Below are positions 19,174 to 64,000 of a stretch of DNA of 64,000 bases, in pieces. Origin of the DNA: Methanobacteriota archaeon (GTDB lineage Archaea; Thermoplasmatota; Thermoplasmata; SG8-5; JAGLSY01); NCBI GenBank assembly GCA_020697715.1, contig JAEHCO010000001.1:810149-874148 (forward strand), read 5' to 3'. Numbering within the stretch: position 1 is the first letter of the stretch; the number at the start of each line of letters is the position of its first letter. Both the position numbers and the translations under genes were made by a program. Below the pieces are notes generated by a model. It saw nothing but the letters and a program-made list of their open reading frames with translations. It was not told the origin of the DNA and did no database searches.

Positions 19174-21747
19174 TTATTCCTCATCATCTGGCTCTATCTC
19201 TTCTTCCAGCCCGCTGAGTTCCGCATCACTCATCACGTGCTGCGGTTTCTTCTCCGCGTGCTCGGCTTCTTCAATGGCTTCCTCAACTTCTTCGGGAGCC
19301 ACGAGCCTCGTCACACTGCAGACCTTGTCATCCTTCTTCTTCAGGCGCATGATCTTCACTCCTTGTGTCGCCCTGCTGATGATCCTAATATCCTTGACTG
19401 GCGTGCGTATGACCATGCCGCTTTCCGAAGTGACAATCAACTCATGATCGTCAGTGACTTCCCTGACGGTGACGACCTCTCCATTCCTTTCGGAGGTCCT
19501 TATATTGATAACACCTTTGGCACCGCGCTTGGTCTTTCTGTAATCCGAGACATTGGACCGCTTGCCGTATCCGTTCTCCGTAACCGTCAGGAGAACGCTC
19601 TCCTCGTCCACGATGGCCATTGACACGACCTCGTCATCGCTGGCCAGTGTCATTCCCTTCACGCCGATGGAGTGCCTGGACACTGTTCTGACAAGGGATT
19701 CTTCGAACCTCACAGCCTGGCCTTTTCTGGAGGCCAGGATTATCTCCTTGCTTCCATCGGTCATGGCCACTCGAACCAACTCATCATCCTCTCTTAGCTT
19801 GACAGCCCAGATACCAGTGACCCTCGGTCTCTTGTAAGCCGAGAGTTTCGTCTTCTTGATGATACCCTTCTTGGTGGAGAATATTAAATAATGGTCTTCA
19901 TCGAATTCCCTGACCGGGATGGCTGTCTGGACATACTCATCATCTTCCAACCTTGGAAGTATATTGACTATGGCCTTGCCCTTCGCATGACGACCTCCAA
20001 TTGGTATCCTGTATCCCTTGAGCCAGTGCACTCTTCCTTTATTGGTGAAGAAGAGCATGAAATTGTGAGTTGTCGTGACATACATATCTGTGATGATGTC
20101 CTCTTCCTTGGTCTCCATACCTATGAGGCCAACACCTCCACGGCGCTGTTGCTTGTATGTATCCAATGTAAGACGCTTGATATAGCCAGTTTGTGTCATG
20201 GAAATGACGATATCCTCTTCTGGGATGAGATCCTCAATATCCATGTCATCCGCATGCACGATTATATCGGTCTTACGCTCATCACCATATCTGGCTTTTA
20301 ATTCTGCCAGTTCTTCCTTGATGATCCTCATCACACGCTCTGGTGTCTCAAGGATATTTGTAAGGTCGGCAATGACGTTCAGCAGGGCGGAGTATTCGTC
20401 CTTCACGCCTTGTCTCTCCATATTGGTAAGCTTCTGAAGCCTCATGTCAAGTATTGCCTTTACCTGTTCAAGTGAAAGCATGAAATTGCCCATGAGCCCT
20501 TCTCTGGCTTCTTCCGCGGTCTTGGATTTTCTGATGATCGCTATGACGGCATCGATATTATCAAGGGCAACTATGAGTCCCTCTAATATGTGGGCTCTGG
20601 CCTTTGCCTTGCTCAGGTCGAATTCCGTTCTGCGAACTACAATGATCTTCCTGTGATTCACCCAATGTTCCAGCATCACCTTGAGGTTCATGACCTTTGG
20701 CTCATTGTCCACAAGAGCCAAGTTGATTATACCGAAGGTCGTCTGCATCTGCGTGTGCTTGTAAAGGATATTGAGAACGACTTCCTCCATCGTACCCCTC
20801 TTGAGCTCGATGACGATCCTCATTCCTTTTCTGTCGCTCTCATCCCTGAGATCGACAATTCCCTCGACCTTTTTGTTCTTCACAAGGTCAGCTATGTTCT
20901 CGATAAGCCTGGATTTATTAACTTGATATGGAATTTCTGTGACGATGATCCGGCTCTTGCCATTGTCCATTTCCTCGATGTGGCTTTTAGCCCTAATTCT
21001 GACACGACCACGGCCAGTGTTGTAGGCTTCGATTATGCCGACCATTCCATAGATCGTTCCGCCAGTTGGGAAATCCGGGGCCTGGATGAATTCCATCAGA
21101 TCCGCAACCTCGGCATCTGGATTGTCAATAAGGAAAGTAAGGCCATCCACAACTTCAGATAGGTTATGTGGCGGGATATTGGTCGCCATTCCGACCGCTA
21201 TTCCGGATGATCCATTGATTATGAGATTTGGAAGCCTGGAAGGCAGAACTGTCGGTTCCTGAAGACTGCCATCGAAATTATCAACGAATTCCACGGTCTC
21301 TTTATCTATATCGGCCAGCATTTCCTCCGCTGTCCGTCTCATACGACATTCTGTGTAACGCATGGCCGCCGCACTGTCACCGTCCACGCTACCGAAATTA
21401 CCCTGACCATCTACCAGCATGTACCTTAGTGAAAAAGGCTGGGCCATTCTGACCAATGTGCCATAAAGTGCCTGGTCACCATGTGGATGGTATTTACCAA
21501 GAACGTCACCGACCACACGGACAGATTTCTTGAAGGGGCGGTTGTGTCCCAGTCCTAGTTCGTTCATGCCATGCAGTAATCTACGATGAGCTGGCTTCAG
21601 TCCATCCCTGACATCTGGAAGAGCACGCCCGACTATGACACTCATCGCATAGTCGATATAGCATTTCTTCATCTCGTCCTCTATTGGCTTTGGGATCTCG
21701 CGTCTTCCCAGGGTTTCCTCATTTATTTCCATATCCACCATTTTCAA
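19174..21747 (-). CDS. gyrA: DNA gyrase subunit A
   Basis: [24 protein letters not shown] catalytic Tyr, GyrA-box QRRGGVG, pinwheel repeats. Confidence 0.97.
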
Positions 21748-21759
21748 TCACCCCTTGAT

Positions 21760-23793
<2,034 letters not shown>

Positions 23794-54705: not shown

Positions 54706-57700
54706 ATGAGTTTATTAGAAAATATGAAAAGTGGGCAAATTAAAGCAATGATTTCAGTTTTAATGGTAGGGTTGATGTTCCTCATGAGTGCGGGGCCAAT
54801 CATGGCGGAATATTCTGGAGATGCGATATCTCAGGACGGTGGCAATGCCACAACTCCTGCGGCTTTCCCAACTCCTTGGCTTGATGATTTTGAATTTGGT
54901 GTGCTTGGTGGAAGTACTGGGGTCAATTGGACGACCACGGACATAACACTTTCCGGTGTGAGCAATGCCATATCTCAATCGGGAATCAATTCCCTTTACA
55001 CATGCGGAGGATCTGTAGTCGTTAATTCCTCTTCTATAGATACCAGTTCTCTTAGTTATACTCAGTTAACATTCTGGATAATGAGAGGGGACGATGGTGT
55101 GATCGGTAGTGAGGATACGGATGCAGGTGAGAACTTCGTAGTGTCTTACTTAAATGATCTTGGTTCTTGGATAACTCTCGAGATCTTCCTAGGTAGTGGT
55201 TTAAATGGAGAGATCATGTCCAGGGAATATTCATTGCCAGCAGATGCAAATCATGCAAATTTCCAGGTTCAATTCGAGCAGACAGCAGGAAGTGGTTTTG
55301 GGATGGATTACTGGCATGTGGACGATGTCATGGTCAGAGAATATACGCCCTTCGAAGTGGAGGTGACCCCTGGATCCCAAACAGGTTCAGCCCCAGCAGG
55401 TGGGGTGGTCGATCACCATATCAGTATTGAGAACATAGGAATATTGAATGACACATATGATCTTTCTGTATCTGGAAATACTTGGCCAGTGACCTTTAGA
55501 AACATGGCGGATACCATGGATATCACGATGATCAGTGTACCTGTCGGCAATATGATCCAGGTGATCGTACGTGTGAATATTGCAAACACTGCCATGCCTG
55601 GTGATTCAGATCTTGCCAACATAACTGTCACTTCACAAAGTGATGGCTCAGTGGAGGATAAATGCATTGTGAATACTGAATTTTACATGACTGTTAGCAG
55701 TGGCGGTGCTTATTTCGTTACTGGATCCTTATCAGATTGGGCTTATGTATCCAATGATGGGTCCCAACATTTCATATTCAATACTTTTGATTGGGTTTGG
55801 CCGACATATGCTAACAGTGGTGAGATACTTCTCATATGGGACGAAGACGCTTGGAATGATGCCTGGAGAACTGAAATGGGACTTCGCAGTATACCATTCA
55901 CACAAGTTACTGGTAGCGCGGTAAATGCCAGCATGCTGGATAGTACCACTTATCCGATGATCATAATTTCTGAAATGATGTACACCGCATCTCTTCCAAA
56001 TATGGAATCACTCGTTACTGAATTTGAGGACTATGTATTGGATGGAGGAGTTCTTATTGATATGATAGGCACCAACAATTTGAGGAGATGGAGCCAGGGA
56101 ACTCCAGGTCCTTTTGGAACAGTAACGGATGCCACTACAGATCTTAACAATTATGTTGCTGAGGTTGGACATGAGATGGTTGAAAATATCCCTATGCCTT
56201 TCTTTTCAGGCAACTCCGCATCTCATGCCAGAATAACCACATCACCAAACGGTTCTATTGACCTTCTTACAACAGGGACGACCCCGGGCGGGGTTCCAGT
56301 GGCTTGCTGGCTTGAATTTACAAGCTTTGAGAATGTCACAGTATTATGGACATCTCCTGCCAATGATTCCACGAGTGTCCCGGTCAATAACAATATCGTT
56401 GTGGTATATGATCAGAATATGAATTCCAGTGATATACCAGTGCTTTCACAGGTTGGCGGTACAGATCCAGGAGGATGGACATTCACAGGCTGGTCTTCAT
56501 CAAATATAAATAATGACACCGCGACATGGACGCATAATGACTGGGCACTGAACCAGACCGTGAACATGACGGTTTACAATGGTAGTTCGATAAGTGGGAA
56601 TGTGCCAATTCAATATAATTGGACCTTCAATACCACATTGGGTGGTGTCACAACAGCCAATGCCACAGGCCCCATTGGTACCTGGTCAAATAATGCTGAT
56701 ATTGACATTCAATATGTGACAACCGGAGGCCCATCCACTGTTGATATTTATTATTCGACAAATGGTGGGGCAACCTGGACCTTGATAGGTACTGATGATC
56801 CCGCAGACGGATCCTTCCTATGGACCATTCCAGGAGAGGGGGTGTATTCTTGGATAGCCGTGTCTCCTGATGAGATCGCACCTGTTCCAACAGATATACC
56901 CGAAATTAGCTCTTACCAGTATGATGCTACATCACCTGCTTCATCTGCTGACCTGATAACCCCTTACTGGCATGAGTCCTCGCTTTTGATAACAGCAACA
57001 GCAAATGATGCTCTAAGTGGTGTATCCTCTGTCCAGCTCTATTATAGATACTCGGCGGATAATGCATCATGGGGAGGTTGGATATTATTCAATACGGACA
57101 GCGCCGCTGCTTATGATTTCAACTTTGATTTCCCACAGTCTGATGGTTATTATGAATTCTACACTATTGCGATGGATAATGCCTTCAATATGGAGGCAGC
57201 TCCCGGGTCTGCAGATGCCATATGTGCCTATGATCCTGTCCCACCAGCAAGCTGGGTAGATATGATATCACCTTACCTCCAGCATATGTCGCCTTTACTC
57301 ATAACCGCCACAGCAAGTGATGCCACGACAAGTGTGGATTATGTGGAATTATGGTACAGGTATTCGAACTTTAACTTCACTTGGGGTGCATGGACGATAA
57401 TAGGTAATGATACGACATCACCATATTCGTATAGCTTCACATTCCCTAATGGTGAAGGTTACTATCAATTCTACACTCGGGCAATGGACAATAATTCTCA
57501 ATATGAGCCAGCTCCAGTAATGGCTGACACATCCTGTCAATATGAACTGATCATTCCAGATGTCACATCTGTGGTTCCTGTAGATGCATCCACTGGCATA
57601 GATATTGGTCAGGATGTCAGTGTGGTATATGATGGGACCATGAACACTCTTGTCACTCCGATATTGACACAGACTGGCGGTACCAACCCGGGTGGCTGGG

Positions 57701-59295
57701 TCTTTGTAGGATGGTCCACGACCAATGTAGCGGATGATACAGCCACATGGACCCACAGTGATTGGACATATGCTCAGCTTATCACTTTGCAAATAAATGG
57801 GGGTGAAAATCTCTATGGTAACTCACTTGCAAATCCTGCTACCTGGAGCTTCACGACCTTTGTGCCGGATATGACACCACCTGTGGTGGATGCTGGCAAT
57901 GACAGATTTGAGAACTCGATCTTCACACAATACGGTTCAGCCACTGATGCAGAATCTGGGGTCGATGGATATGAATGGACACAGGAATCTGGTCCAGGTA
58001 CTATCACTTTCCAGGATCCATATAATGCGTATACCCAAATGGAGGCTGATACTGATGGGGTATATGTGGTAAGCCTCATGGCCTATGATTTCGAAGGAAA
58101 TAGTGCCACTGACACCTTTAGACTTGTATGGGATACGGTCGTTCCTATTGTTGATGCAGGACCTAATAGCACCCGGAATAAGCAATTCACTCAGTACGGC
58201 ACGGTCATAGAAGAAGGAAGTGGGATCAGTTACTACTCATGGACAGTGGAAATTGGATATGTCAGTCATATCACCTTTGGATCCAGTTATGATAATCAGA
58301 CCACGATTCGATCTGACTCAGATAGGACATACACCATCCGGTTCACCGTCTCTGATCTTGCAGGAAATAGCGCCTATGATGAATTCACTTTGGTTTGGGA
58401 TACCACGTCCCCCATGGTCACTATAACTCCATCTGGAAATGATGTCCCGATCGATACCAATATCACCTTGTCCTTTGATGAGGAAATGAACCGCGACAGT
58501 GTGGAAGCTGGTCTGATAATACTATGGAACAATGGGGATGAATATGTTGAGGATGATACGATCACTGGAACCTTCAACTGGAATGATGCTGGCTCAGAGG
58601 TGTCCTTCGATCCAGATGATCCGCTATCTTATAGTATGAAATATACTGTGGAATTCACAAATTCGGTGAGAGATATAGCTGGTAACAAAATGGGCAGTGA
58701 TGGAGGATACAAGGGCTTTATCACCATGGATGAACCAATTCCACCAGCAGGCGATATAGAAGGCCAGATATTGGATAATAATGATGAACCTATCGAAGGA
58801 GCCGTGGTCGAGATAATGATCGATGGAGTTTCGTATAGTGACACGACGGATTCAGATGGTAATTTCGAAATAGAGGGCGTTCCTGTAGGAACTCACGATA
58901 TGACAGTTACCAAAGGTACTGTGGAAGATACCATATCGGTTGTGATCGAGCCTGATGACACTACAGAGGTCCCACCTTTCAATCTTGTTCCAGAAACAGT
59001 AGAGGATGATGGAGCATCGAGCTTTTGGTGGATACTGTTAATAATAATAGTAGTGGTAATTCTGATCTTGATCATCGTGATGAAGAATAAGAAAAATGGA
59101 CCACCGCAACAGGCACACACACCTCCACAACATTACGAGGATCCCCCACCGCCACCAGGATATGTCGATCAGTCTGCTAGCACCATGCCTCCAGAGGGAG
59201 CTCCCCCTACGACTCCAGGGGAAGCAACACCTGTGATGCCAGAAGAGGCACCACCGATGCCACCTGAAGATATGCCACCAGCATCTCCTGAATAG
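54706..59295 (+). CDS. Large Ig-like (Big_5/PKD/carboxypeptidase-regulatory) surface protein with TM anchor and Pro-rich tail
   Basis: Signal peptide; duplicated GGTDPGGW...DTATWTH and LYYRYS...W modules; WWILL TM helix. Confidence 0.82.
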   Translation: MSLLENMKSGQIKAMISVLMVGLMFLMSAGPIMAEYSGDAISQDGGNATTPAAFPTPWLDDFEFGVLGGSTGVNWTTTDITLSGVSNAISQSGINSLYTCGGSVVVNSSSIDTSSLSYTQLTFWIMRGDDGVIGSEDTDAGENFVVSYLNDLGSWITLEIFLGSGLNGEIMSREYSLPADANHANFQVQFEQTAGSGFGMDYWHVDDVMVREYTPFEVEVTPGSQTGSAPAGGVVDHHISIENIGILNDTYDLSVSGNTWPVTFRNMADTMDITMISVPVGNMIQVIVRVNIANTAMPGDSDLANITVTSQSDGSVEDKCIVNTEFYMTVSSGGAYFVTGSLSDWAYVSNDGSQHFIFNTFDWVWPTYANSGEILLIWDEDAWNDAWRTEMGLRSIPFTQVTGSAVNASMLDSTTYPMIIISEMMYTASLPNMESLVTEFEDYVLDGGVLIDMIGTNNLRRWSQGTPGPFGTVTDATTDLNNYVAEVGHEMVENIPMPFFSGNSASHARITTSPNGSIDLLTTGTTPGGVPVACWLEFTSFENVTVLWTSPANDSTSVPVNNNIVVVYDQNMNSSDIPVLSQVGGTDPGGWTFTGWSSSNINNDTATWTHNDWALNQTVNMTVYNGSSISGNVPIQYNWTFNTTLGGVTTANATGPIGTWSNNADIDIQYVTTGGPSTVDIYYSTNGGATWTLIGTDDPADGSFLWTIPGEGVYSWIAVSPDEIAPVPTDIPEISSYQYDATSPASSADLITPYWHESSLLITATANDALSGVSSVQLYYRYSADNASWGGWILFNTDSAAAYDFNFDFPQSDGYYEFYTIAMDNAFNMEAAPGSADAICAYDPVPPASWVDMISPYLQHMSPLLITATASDATTSVDYVELWYRYSNFNFTWGAWTIIGNDTTSPYSYSFTFPNGEGYYQFYTRAMDNNSQYEPAPVMADTSCQYELIIPDVTSVVPVDASTGIDIGQDVSVVYDGTMNTLVTPILTQTGGTNPGGWVFVGWSTTNVADDTATWTHSDWTYAQLITLQINGGENLYGNSLANPATWSFTTFVPDMTPPVVDAGNDRFENSIFTQYGSATDAESGVDGYEWTQESGPGTITFQDPYNAYTQMEADTDGVYVVSLMAYDFEGNSATDTFRLVWDTVVPIVDAGPNSTRNKQFTQYGTVIEEGSGISYYSWTVEIGYVSHITFGSSYDNQTTIRSDSDRTYTIRFTVSDLAGNSAYDEFTLVWDTTSPMVTITPSGNDVPIDTNITLSFDEEMNRDSVEAGLIILWNNGDEYVEDDTITGTFNWNDAGSEVSFDPDDPLSYSMKYTVEFTNSVRDIAGNKMGSDGGYKGFITMDEPIPPAGDIEGQILDNNDEPIEGAVVEIMIDGVSYSDTTDSDGNFEIEGVPVGTHDMTVTKGTVEDTISVVIEPDDTTEVPPFNLVPETVEDDGASSFWWILLIIIVVVILILIIVMKNKKNGPPQQAHTPPQHYEDPPPPPGYVDQSASTMPPEGAPPTTPGEATPVMPEEAPPMPPEDMPPASPE

Positions 59296-59526
59296 ATATA
59301 CATCAGTGTCTTCCAGATATCGTAGATCACAAAGACTATGAGCAATGTATGTTCGATTTGAAATACTATAGGAATAGTGCTTGACATCCAAAAAGATCAT
59401 GCCTGGCTTGGTCGCTCTAACTATATGAAATGTGGATGTATGATTTGGTGCTTTAAAGTATTAGACTATAAAGCTATCCCAAAACCTTTTTTAAATGCCC
59501 TATCAATATAAGAATGGAGTGAAATC

Positions 59527-62233: not shown

Positions 62234-64000
62234 TTGAGCGAGGTGCTGTTAACGTCTAATGATTTCCTTCCCGATGGTAAACTGATCCGAACTATCCACG
62301 GCGGAGAGGATACTCTCAAGAAAAGTCTTATAAAACTCAAGAAATATGAGTTCACTGGCTACGTTAAGAGCATGCTGAAGCGTGATGGGAAGATATCTGA
62401 AGGATATTTGATAATTAAAAATGGAGTTCCTGTAGCGGCAGTCTATGGTCGAAGAGATGGATCCGATCTGCAGATAACGAAGCAGGGTGAGAAAGCTCTT
62501 AAACTTGCCTGGGTGGATTCCTATGATGATAAATGTGAGATAGAGGTCAGAGGTAGATTGGAGGTAGATGCATTTCTCTCAGAACATCCCGAATCCTCCA
62601 TTACTGTTCTGAAACCCTCTGGAAAGAAAAGACCACGAGCCAAAGTGGGGATATCGTGGGGGGATTCAAATAATAAAGAACCAAATAAGACAGGTCCGAG
62701 CAAGGAATTGAAACCCCTTCAAAATAGGATCGAACTATGGAGATCTGAAGGATATGTCGTGAACAACCTTCAGGAGGCTCTTGAAGGTCCAATTGAAAAT
62801 GCGAAGCACATGTTCGACGAATTCAGTGAGAATATCAAGAAGATAGATTTTTTCAAGGACGATCTGGAAAGCATGGATACCATCGGTCATGGGACCGAGG
62901 TGGAAAAGCTCAAGGCTCTTTTCAAGAATCCGATGAAGATAACCGCCATAGAAGCCGCTATGGAAGATCTGAGCGACAAGATACATATATTGGATGACCC
63001 AGAGGAATCTGAAGATATAGGAACTGGACATGATTTCAATCTGGAAATAGAGCCAATAGTTGCTGAAAAGCCACCAACTACTGAACCGATCATCGAGAAG
63101 CCAGTTCAGAAGTCAAAACCTGTATTCAGTTCAGTTCCCGAACTAGATCCCATTGTCATGAACAAGGAAGAAACTATCAAAGAGCCTATTGAGGATCTTT
63201 GTGGGATATGTGGCGGTGGTATGGGCGGTCTTGATGAATGTCCAATATGCGGTGCTATCAGGAACACGAAAACAGACAAAGGAAAGCTTGATGATATTCT
63301 CAAGACGAAGGATACTGGACTCATTCCCACATTCACCTTCGAGAATTTTGTTGTCGGGGACAATAACAGATTCTCGCAAGCGGCTTCCTTGGCTGTTGCC
63401 AAAGCCGAATCATCTGTTTACAATCCATTATTGATCTGCAGTGGAGTTGGTCTTGGTAAGACACATATGATCAATGCCATAGGAAATTATGTGGTAAATG
63501 GTGATGAGGGTAGGAAGGTCCTTTATATCACCACCGAGAAGTTCATGCAGGAATTCATAGAAGCTACCAGATCCAATAAGCTGAAGGCTTTCAGAAGCCG
63601 ATATAGAAAGATAGACATTCTTCTTTTAGATGATATCCAGTTCATCGCCGATCAGGAAGCTGTTCAGGATGAATTGTTCCATACTTTCAATGCTCTTTAT
63701 AAGGATAATAAACAGATAGTCATGTCCAGTGATTGTCCATTAAAAGATATATCTGGCTTGAAGGATAGACTTGTCTCTCGTTTCGAATCAGGCCTGGTTA
63801 CAGATATACAGGCTCCGGATCTTGAGACCCGAGTGAGCATATTGAGGAAGAAGGCCGAGATAGCGGGCTTTGTTGTTGGAGATGATGTATTGAATTTCAT
63901 TTCCCGGATATATACCAGCAATGTCCGGCTTTTGGAAGGTGCATTGAATAAGATCATCGCATATTGTGAATTGATGAACACAAGCCCAACAATATCCCTT
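62234..64000 (+). CDS. DUF2226-like + Zn ribbon + bacterial-type DnaA AAA+ domain protein (3' partial, not in the ORF track)
   Basis: Open from TTG 62234 / GTG 62243: LPDGKL...FTGYV...EGYLIIKNG; CGIC/CPIC; FTFENFVVGDNN, YNPL, GVGLGKTH, LLDDIQF, FHTFN, SRFESG, NVRLLEGAL. Confidence 0.9.
   Translation, partial: MSEVLLTSNDFLPDGKLIRTIHGGEDTLKKSLIKLKKYEFTGYVKSMLKRDGKISEGYLIIKNGVPVAAVYGRRDGSDLQITKQGEKALKLAWVDSYDDKCEIEVRGRLEVDAFLSEHPESSITVLKPSGKKRPRAKVGISWGDSNNKEPNKTGPSKELKPLQNRIELWRSEGYVVNNLQEALEGPIENAKHMFDEFSENIKKIDFFKDDLESMDTIGHGTEVEKLKALFKNPMKITAIEAAMEDLSDKIHILDDPEESEDIGTGHDFNLEIEPIVAEKPPTTEPIIEKPVQKSKPVFSSVPELDPIVMNKEETIKEPIEDLCGICGGGMGGLDECPICGAIRNTKTDKGKLDDILKTKDTGLIPTFTFENFVVGDNNRFSQAASLAVAKAESSVYNPLLICSGVGLGKTHMINAIGNYVVNGDEGRKVLYITTEKFMQEFIEATRSNKLKAFRSRYRKIDILLLDDIQFIADQEAVQDELFHTFNALYKDNKQIVMSSDCPLKDISGLKDRLVSRFESGLVTDIQAPDLETRVSILRKKAEIAGFVVGDDVLNFISRIYTSNVRLLEGALNKIIAYCELMNTSPTISL

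Follow-up and report, generated by a model that had tools for sequence, protein, structure and literature searches.

A DnaA-type ATPase domain conserved among Thermoplasmata archaea, with DUF835 in place of the DNA-reading end

DnaA is the hallmark of replication initiation in bacteria, and Orc1/Cdc6 is the archaeal one. What, then, does a DnaA-type ATPase domain do in an archaeon? The question is raised by a 64,000-nucleotide (nt) stretch of the genome of a Methanobacteriota archaeon (GTDB lineage Thermoplasmatota; Thermoplasmata; SG8-5; GenBank assembly GCA_020697715.1, contig JAEHCO010000001.1, positions 810,149 to 874,148 of the forward strand), referred to here as the window (G000:C11:810149-874148, on the 956-kb contig C11). 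At its 3' end lies the DnaA-like gene, an open reading frame (ORF) that continues past the last letter of the window. Followed along the contig, the full gene encodes 773 amino acids (aa), runs 555 nt past the window end, and stops at G000:C11:874703 (L001:1501-3822). Its product has four modules: an N-terminal α/β domain, a helical spacer followed by an acidic linker with a zinc ribbon, DnaA domain III, and DUF835. The explanation we prefer, at about an even chance of being right, is that domain III was captured from bacterial DnaA and serves as an ATP-gated oligomerizer between two adaptor ends, making the protein a switch or scaffold and not an origin melter.

The third module is a complete DnaA domain III, consisting of the AAA+ core and its lid. 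Pfam Bac_DnaA (PF00308) matches aa 365–524 with 203.6 bits (E 2.8e-60), and the NCBIfam DnaA model TIGR00362 matches aa 354–603 with 329 bits over model positions 95–340 of 437, without reaching its equivalog cut-off of 343.9. The best solved relative is DnaA of Bacillus subtilis (8bv3/8btg, E ~4e-78), whose printed alignment is gapless over aa 363–596 and ends where domain IV would start. The motifs from which the first-pass annotation of the window recognized this domain are all where it put them: Walker A GVGLGKT (aa 404–410, nt 63443–63463, key lysine K409), Walker B LLLDD (aa 463–467, acidic pair D466/D467), the SRF motif that holds the arginine finger R516, and the NVR motif that holds sensor II R565. 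R512 is a further key residue of the domain.

The NCBIfam models of the related ATPases stay below their cut-offs. The Hda models give 80.8 bits against a cut-off of 194.8 (TIGR03420) and 46.6 against 268 (NF005982), the IstB model NF038214 gives 55.5 against 200, and the DnaC model NF005931 gives 20.1 against 357; Pfam IstB_IS21 reaches 40.6 bits, and the Hda match in the PDB has an E-value of 4e-6. The ORF is missing from the 13 matches to the Orc1/Cdc6 model TIGR02928 found at E up to 0.001. Because of these hidden Markov model (HMM) scores and this absence, we classify the ATPase domain, by its sequence, as DnaA type and not as IstB/DnaC, Hda, or Cdc6; the regrouping with IstB/DnaC or Cdc6 that the first-pass annotation had singled out as worth checking is not seen. 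The protein shares the AAA+ initiator/loader clade with the IstB/DnaC helper ATPases, but their scores fall far below that of DnaA and the locus has no transposase context. Like Orc1/Cdc6 it is an initiator-clade ATPase of archaea, but it is encoded by a separate gene. Hda, a protein of ~230–250 aa that acts on DnaA-ATP together with the sliding clamp, offers another comparison: Hda/HdaA also consists of a DnaA-clade domain III without domain IV, and the Hda lid model weakly matches 20 of 34 relatives. Unlike Hda, however, the archaeal protein scores far better as DnaA (329 versus 80.8 bits), and its host has no DnaA for an Hda-type action.

Domain IV, the DNA-reading end of DnaA, had been out of view for the first-pass annotation, since the gene runs off the window. 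On the extended contig it is not merely unseen but replaced. Bac_DnaA_C (Pfam) has no match in the 773-aa protein, a domain IV profile built from bacterial matches recognizes none of 40 archaeal rows, and DUF835 stands in its place: PF05763 matches with 90.4 bits (E 1.1e-25, cut-off 33.1) over model positions 3–136 of 136, as it matches 32 of 34 relatives. The domain carries the conserved motifs LWLTD and DGLEYL, and no P-loop motif (GK[ST]) occurs in aa 620–773. Its region is also matched weakly by KaiC (E 0.016), FlaH (E 0.0014), and DUF7504. A table and footnote in PMC5847659 count DUF835 ('iKaiC') among the output domains of response regulators (REC-DUF835) in Methanomicrobia and Thermoplasmata and mark it as KaiC-like but inactivated. 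The present protein has the C-terminal PF05763 domain in common with these regulators and with other archaeal 'iKaiC' proteins but differs from the regulators in its input module, a DnaA-type ATPase instead of a receiver domain.

The genome encodes five DUF835 ORFs in all, with differing partner modules. Those of the other four (G000:C11:75666-76649, 196470-199695, and 285134-285973) include TPR repeats, zinc ribbons, and, in one ORF, a cysteine-rich N-terminal region that may be V4R-like. Two of the four adjoin a KaiC-like ATPase match at C11:195071-195694.

Residue conservation separates the functions of domain III. Our comparison set 40 archaeal domain III rows against 68 bacterial ones, the latter drawn from the best-scoring 150 representatives and hence not an even sample of bacteria. 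Every archaeal row keeps the Walker A lysine, the Walker B DD pair, and sensor II R313 (B. subtilis numbering, as for the residues that follow); R260 is kept in 38 rows and the arginine finger R264 in 37. The columns at least 85% conserved in the bacterial DnaAs but kept in less than 50% of the archaeal set are Y115, I190, I216, and K222. A preprint on B. subtilis DnaA (10.1101/2022.03.18.484894) gives I190, K222, and T225 roles in contacting single-stranded DNA (ssDNA). It reports that R264A blocks oligomerization and that I190A, K222S, K222Q, and T225A fail in strand separation, with K222S/Q and T225A confirmed as still binding ATP and oligomerizing, and I190A and R264A assessed in earlier work. 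The full ssDNA triad, scored as I/V/L/M, K/R, and T/S, respectively, is retained in 5/40 archaeal versus 51/68 bacterial rows, and the protein of the window has I442, Q474, and V477 at these positions. From this pattern, constraint on ATP handling and subunit contact appears intact and constraint on the ssDNA surface relaxed, if partially.

Could the protein nevertheless serve these archaea as a second replication initiator, one of bacterial type that opens an origin? It has a bona fide DnaA-type AAA+ module with ATP site and arginine finger intact, and several sources name it 'chromosomal replication initiator protein DnaA'. The shared inventory with bacterial DnaA covers the whole of domain III (AAA+ core, lid, Walker A/B, R260/R264 of box VII, and sensor II), but the archaeal protein lacks domains I, II, and IV, bears DUF835 and the N-terminal modules instead, misses the equivalog cut-off, and has a relaxed ssDNA triad. 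Its hosts also have Orc1/Cdc6. As the first-pass annotation expected of an archaeon, Orc1/Cdc6 genes are present, two of them over the cut-off (C11:418510 and C11:233238; 423 and 262 bits). They share the contig of the DnaA-like gene, at distances of ~454 and ~639 kb. The DnaA-box clusters that it had proposed to look for did not turn up: TTWTNCACA occurs 205 times against 181 expected, and in this crude test no three copies fall within 600 bp anywhere on C11, nor is there a cluster within ~5 kb of the gene. Class families with complete single-contig genomes have no strong match to the ATPase domain, and f9, f13, and f20 show weak cross-matches only. Taken with the evidence for its ATPase module, this makes a second initiator very improbable.

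The N-terminal part differs from DnaA as well. In aa 1–362, no Pfam family is found at E up to 10 except a chance-level match to Fes1 (E 0.21), and the fold searches of the N-terminal models list no DnaA domain I, which taken alone counts neither way. The model of aa 1–365, built on 34 aligned sequences, contains the α/β domain, which we call Ndom, and the helical spacer, Hel. Ndom has five invariant glycines (G23, G42, G57, G64, and G85) and a predicted local distance difference test score (pLDDT) of ~95 within the 365-aa model and of 82.7 when folded alone. No clear solved fold was found for Ndom alone (VIA reached Z 5.2 and Foldseek E 0.028 at best), and the whole aa 1–365 model has no clear solved counterpart either (best Foldseek E 0.024; best VIA Z 6.8, for the helical part). 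Hel, with near-invariant W169, G173, and P233, matches generic helical bundles only (Z up to 6.8). For neither predicted domain do the missing fold matches establish a new fold. That domain I of DnaA is absent agrees with the first-pass annotation, whose identification of the replacement as a DUF2226-like domain fared less well. Across the genome, the DUF2226 model (PF09987) has a single match, to aa 37–78 of the ORF, with 13.4 bits and E 0.049 against a cut-off of 22. Among the relatives, 3 of 34 match at E up to 1 (best 3e-4), and the Atlas lists a DUF2226 cluster at 0.89; 0/151 genomes of the phylum exceed the cut-off, leaving nothing for a profile comparison.

Relatives of Ndom and Hel hint at what these modules do. 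The sole other Ndom ORF of the genome is an 809-aa paralogue (G000:C22:161844-164279, minus strand, E 1.3e-15) in which Ndom is the head on ~690 aa of coiled coil, and because of this arrangement its sequence suggests Ndom as the head of rod-like scaffold proteins. Searches for stand-alone Ndom at 59–228 aa returned one 102-aa fragment, in a shared-word search that distant relatives can escape. Hel is repeated eight times in the relatives P0153, P0163, and P0180 and also sits between the two ATPase domains of tandem relatives. The acidic linker that follows is disordered in the model (pLDDT <55) around a CxxC-x9-CxxC zinc ribbon with a pLDDT of ~87 (aa 323–339, nt 63200–63250, C323-C326 and C336-C339). 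Linker and ribbon are present in the protein of the window as first described; the ribbon occurs in 16/30 aligned representatives and is thus specific to one part of the family, not a feature of the whole.

We propose that, as in DnaA, each subunit would on binding ATP have its site completed by the arginine finger of its neighbor, building a head-to-tail oligomer. The oligomer would cluster the flanking modules, the N-terminal head on its helical spacer and the C-terminal inactivated KaiC-like DUF835, both most likely protein-binding adaptors, and the protein would work as a switch or scaffold that depends on nucleotide. Links to a KaiC-type signaling network and to the zinc-ribbon/helical-repeat protein encoded next to it are possible, and it would neither read DnaA boxes nor melt an origin. 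We read the protein as an oligomerizer because domain III is complete and the residues for ATP and oligomerization are kept, and as something other than an initiator because the ssDNA residues are relaxed, DUF835 occupies the place of the absent domain IV, two Orc1/Cdc6 genes are present, and DnaA-box clusters are missing. A head-plus-rod scaffold fits since Ndom heads a coiled-coil protein and Hel is repeated eight times in relatives. The first-pass annotation had imagined a captured DnaA re-wired as an ATP-dependent filament or signaling protein; the residue pattern suits that idea better than it suits an initiator.

Several points weigh against this proposal, beginning with the uneven bacterial sample noted above, and most of them would suit a DNA-acting accessory factor, one that uses domain III, the zinc ribbon, or Ndom to load onto nucleic acid and, leaving initiation itself to others, works beside Orc1/Cdc6 in regulating replication, repair, or chromosome organization. 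Domain III matches the bacterial level of conservation roughly along its full length, initiator-specific insertion included, which could mean a persisting DNA-related constraint. Relaxation of the ssDNA surface is partial: the I190 position is hydrophobic in 23/40 archaeal rows and the K222 position is K/R in 18/40, and some members, as well as the subclade of the window at I442, may retain part of that surface. In the second ATPase domain of tandem relatives all three ssDNA residues are kept in 13 of 18 rows, and the loss is thus not uniform in the wider archaeal-type group. The zinc ribbon of about half the representatives could bind nucleic acid. In family f7 (L029-L031, L034, and L035), only two to three genes separate gyrB and gyrA from the DnaA-like gene, and in the present genome the bacterial-type gyrA and gyrB lie inside the window (19687-23718, minus strand), ~38 kb upstream of it; the proximity may be a relic of a joint transfer. 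In addition, the link to KaiC-like ATPases comes from a domain label and loose co-location, and ATPase activity, oligomerization, and binding are all predictions from sequence. Set against an accessory factor are the absence of a domain that recognizes double-stranded DNA, the T/S residue at the T225 position in only 6/40 rows, and the glutamine of the window protein at the K222 position, a change that, in the preprint cited above, makes B. subtilis DnaA fail in strand separation. The ribbon, moreover, is missing from about half of the family, and no replication genes are conserved beside the DnaA-like gene across the lineages of the loci examined. An accessory factor acting on DNA is plausible but less likely, and the ATP-gated oligomerizer remains the reading we favor.

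How widely the architecture is shared also bears on whether the gene is genuine. Of 7,997 candidates scored in a word-indexed search, 600 proteins matched at E up to 0.001, and 118 of the 120 best homologues, from independent sources, combine PF00308 with PF05763. The other two are shorter records (568 and 627 aa) on contigs of 8.8 and 2.2 kb. The order Ndom-AAA-DUF835 is found in 17/17 loci from 17 genomes, with Hel in 16 of them. An assembly chimera, or a contaminating bacterial dnaA joined near 63300 as the first-pass annotation had cautioned, is ruled out by this order, conserved across many archaeal families, together with the pairing of both domains in the homologues, the length of the contig, and an even GC (guanine-plus-cytosine) content of 0.41–0.43 across the gene. 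Where the databases name the homologues, they call them 'DnaA/Hda family protein', 'DUF835 domain-containing protein', or 'chromosomal replication initiator protein DnaA' of Thermoplasmata, and the earlier guess that such labels might already exist was right.

Within the class, PF00308 matches at E up to 0.001 in 136 of 201 sampled genomes. Since this model also cross-matches archaeal control genomes, we counted strong matches alone: the best E-value is 1e-40 or lower in ~104/201 genomes, mostly with one strong match each. Families f9, f12, f13, f20, and f26 have weak cross-matches only, as does f16 save for one genome at 1e-21, and in this sample of 201 no strong match comes from a family that includes complete single-contig genomes.

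An exhaustive search with aa 345–589 yielded 19,787 representatives at E up to 0.001, those of bacterial DnaA length being 47–55% identical to the query and the single-domain ones among them 49–55%. When 146 new representatives were screened with four profiles, 103 showed the ATPase domain alone; 68 of these match the domain IV profile, the rest are mostly truncated or garbled, and 11 of the 103 carry long low-complexity tails. Tandem ATPase domains occur in 29/146, 15 of them with Hel in between. DUF835 is present in 10 representatives, Ndom with eight Hel matches and one ATPase domain in 3, and two Hel matches with one ATPase domain in 1. Non-canonical architectures around DnaA domain III, tandem and other, include P0123-P0142, P0153, P0163, and P0180, and one tandem-ATPase protein is labeled as belonging to a Gemmatimonadota metagenome-assembled genome.

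We then placed 147 domain III rows in an unrooted maximum-likelihood tree (LG+G4; supported by the Shimodaira–Hasegawa-like approximate likelihood ratio test, SH-aLRT, only) that left out 23 of the 68 bacterial rows, chosen at random, and the truncated or garbled rows. A single clade (SH-aLRT 98), separate from the bacterial DnaAs sampled, holds 39 of the 40 DUF835-fused rows; this unrooted tree does not resolve at its base, and we name no donor lineage from it. The DnaA-like gene appears to be inherited vertically, given one strong match in most genomes, one clade, and a conserved convergent neighbor.

That neighbor, overlooked in the first-pass annotation, lies tail-to-tail with the DnaA-like gene across a 20-nt gap (Table 1). 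It encodes a protein with three zinc ribbons, a Pro/Glu-rich linker, and a helical-repeat domain of ~270 aa, and it adjoins the DnaA-like gene in 14/17 loci. When place tables were compared by hand, 69 genomes had the best match of its helical domain less than 4 kb away from the DnaA-like gene, convergent with it on the other strand. Five fragmented genomes from families that are otherwise positive have the two genes on separate contigs, and in families f11 and f18 the genes do not adjoin. The helical domain itself occurs in 154/201 genomes, a tally that includes the unpublished genome G098, on which no claim rests, with up to 18 matches per genome, some in ORFs of ~1,500 aa. Hel and this domain appear unrelated in sequence (hhalign probability 0.6%). 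A complex prediction of the two protein halves with the neighbor's helical domain scored 0.00, which gives no verdict and counts neither way.

Table 1 Coordinates of the DnaA-like gene, its modules, and the convergent neighbor. Positions refer to the window unless a contig or locus is named.
Feature	Position	Strand	Basis
DnaA-like gene, part inside the window (aa 1-589 of 773)	62234..64000	+	ORF open at window 3' end
Ndom, N-terminal α/β domain (aa 10-125)	62261..62608	+	Predicted model; order β-α-4β-α-β-α
Hel, helical spacer domain (aa 155-256)	62696..63001	+	Predicted model, pLDDT 93-98
Acidic low-confidence linker with CxxC-x9-CxxC zinc ribbon	63002..63316	+	Motif positions, model
DnaA domain III, AAA+ core and lid (aa 362-598; last 9 residues past the window)	63317..64000	+	Pfam, NCBIfam, structure match, residues
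DUF835 domain (aa 634-767), past the window	G000:C11:874281-874682 (L001:3400-3801)	+	PF05763
Convergent neighbor gene, 549 aa	G000:C11:874724-876373 (L023:10724-12373)	-	Pfam DZR E 1.6e-11, alignment

The start of the DnaA-like gene has two candidates, TTG at 62234 and GTG at 62243; the database copy P0003 is 770 aa long, and the relatives P0004 and P0005 begin with MSEVLF at the equivalent of 62234. Genes for a TPR protein, FolE2, and a proteasome chaperone of the PAC2 type flank it upstream. The cluster of some lineages additionally includes genes for a KaiC-like ATPase and a zinc-ribbon protein with coiled coil; the KaiC-like orthologue in the present genome is at C11:242845-243546. Farther downstream, a gene for a ThsB-like TIR domain (E 6e-18) overlaps one for an 8xMP octameric membrane protein (E 7.5e-40) by a few bases (L023:16923-17797, plus strand; G000:C11:880923-881797), which may be a small defense-type pair. 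Within the window, positions 54854-59443 (plus strand; L023:854-5443) encode a probable surface protein of 1,529 aa that carries Big_5, PKD-like, and CarboxypepD_reg domains.

The domains themselves are already known, and the proteins are already in public databases under automatic names; what is new is the conserved archaeal architecture around a DnaA-clade ATPase. No paper describing the DnaA-DUF835 family was found, nor one pairing 'DnaA' and 'DUF835' in the literature searched. The absence of strong matches from the families with complete single-contig genomes may explain why, if those families are the cultured ones. For genome annotation and origin prediction, the public label 'chromosomal replication initiator protein DnaA' is misleading, and the family offers a way into the study of DUF835 and of a new N-terminal domain. 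In a bolder and rather improbable extension, a large uncultured radiation of Thermoplasmata would have domesticated a bacterial DnaA ATPase at its base, and chromosome-cycle control in these archaea would now have a second layer, derived from bacteria, to which the protein belongs: a filament charged with ATP on a head-and-rod scaffold, its DUF835 end reporting to or gated by a KaiC-type network, working with the zinc-ribbon neighbor alongside Orc1/Cdc6. DnaA domain III has become fixed in many archaeal families without the DNA-reading domain and with relaxed ssDNA contacts, which would separate ATP-dependent assembly from origin recognition and melting. Many uncultured Thermoplasmata thus carry a conserved protein built around a DnaA ATPase core that, because a signaling-type domain has taken the place of the DNA-reading end, probably has a new job.

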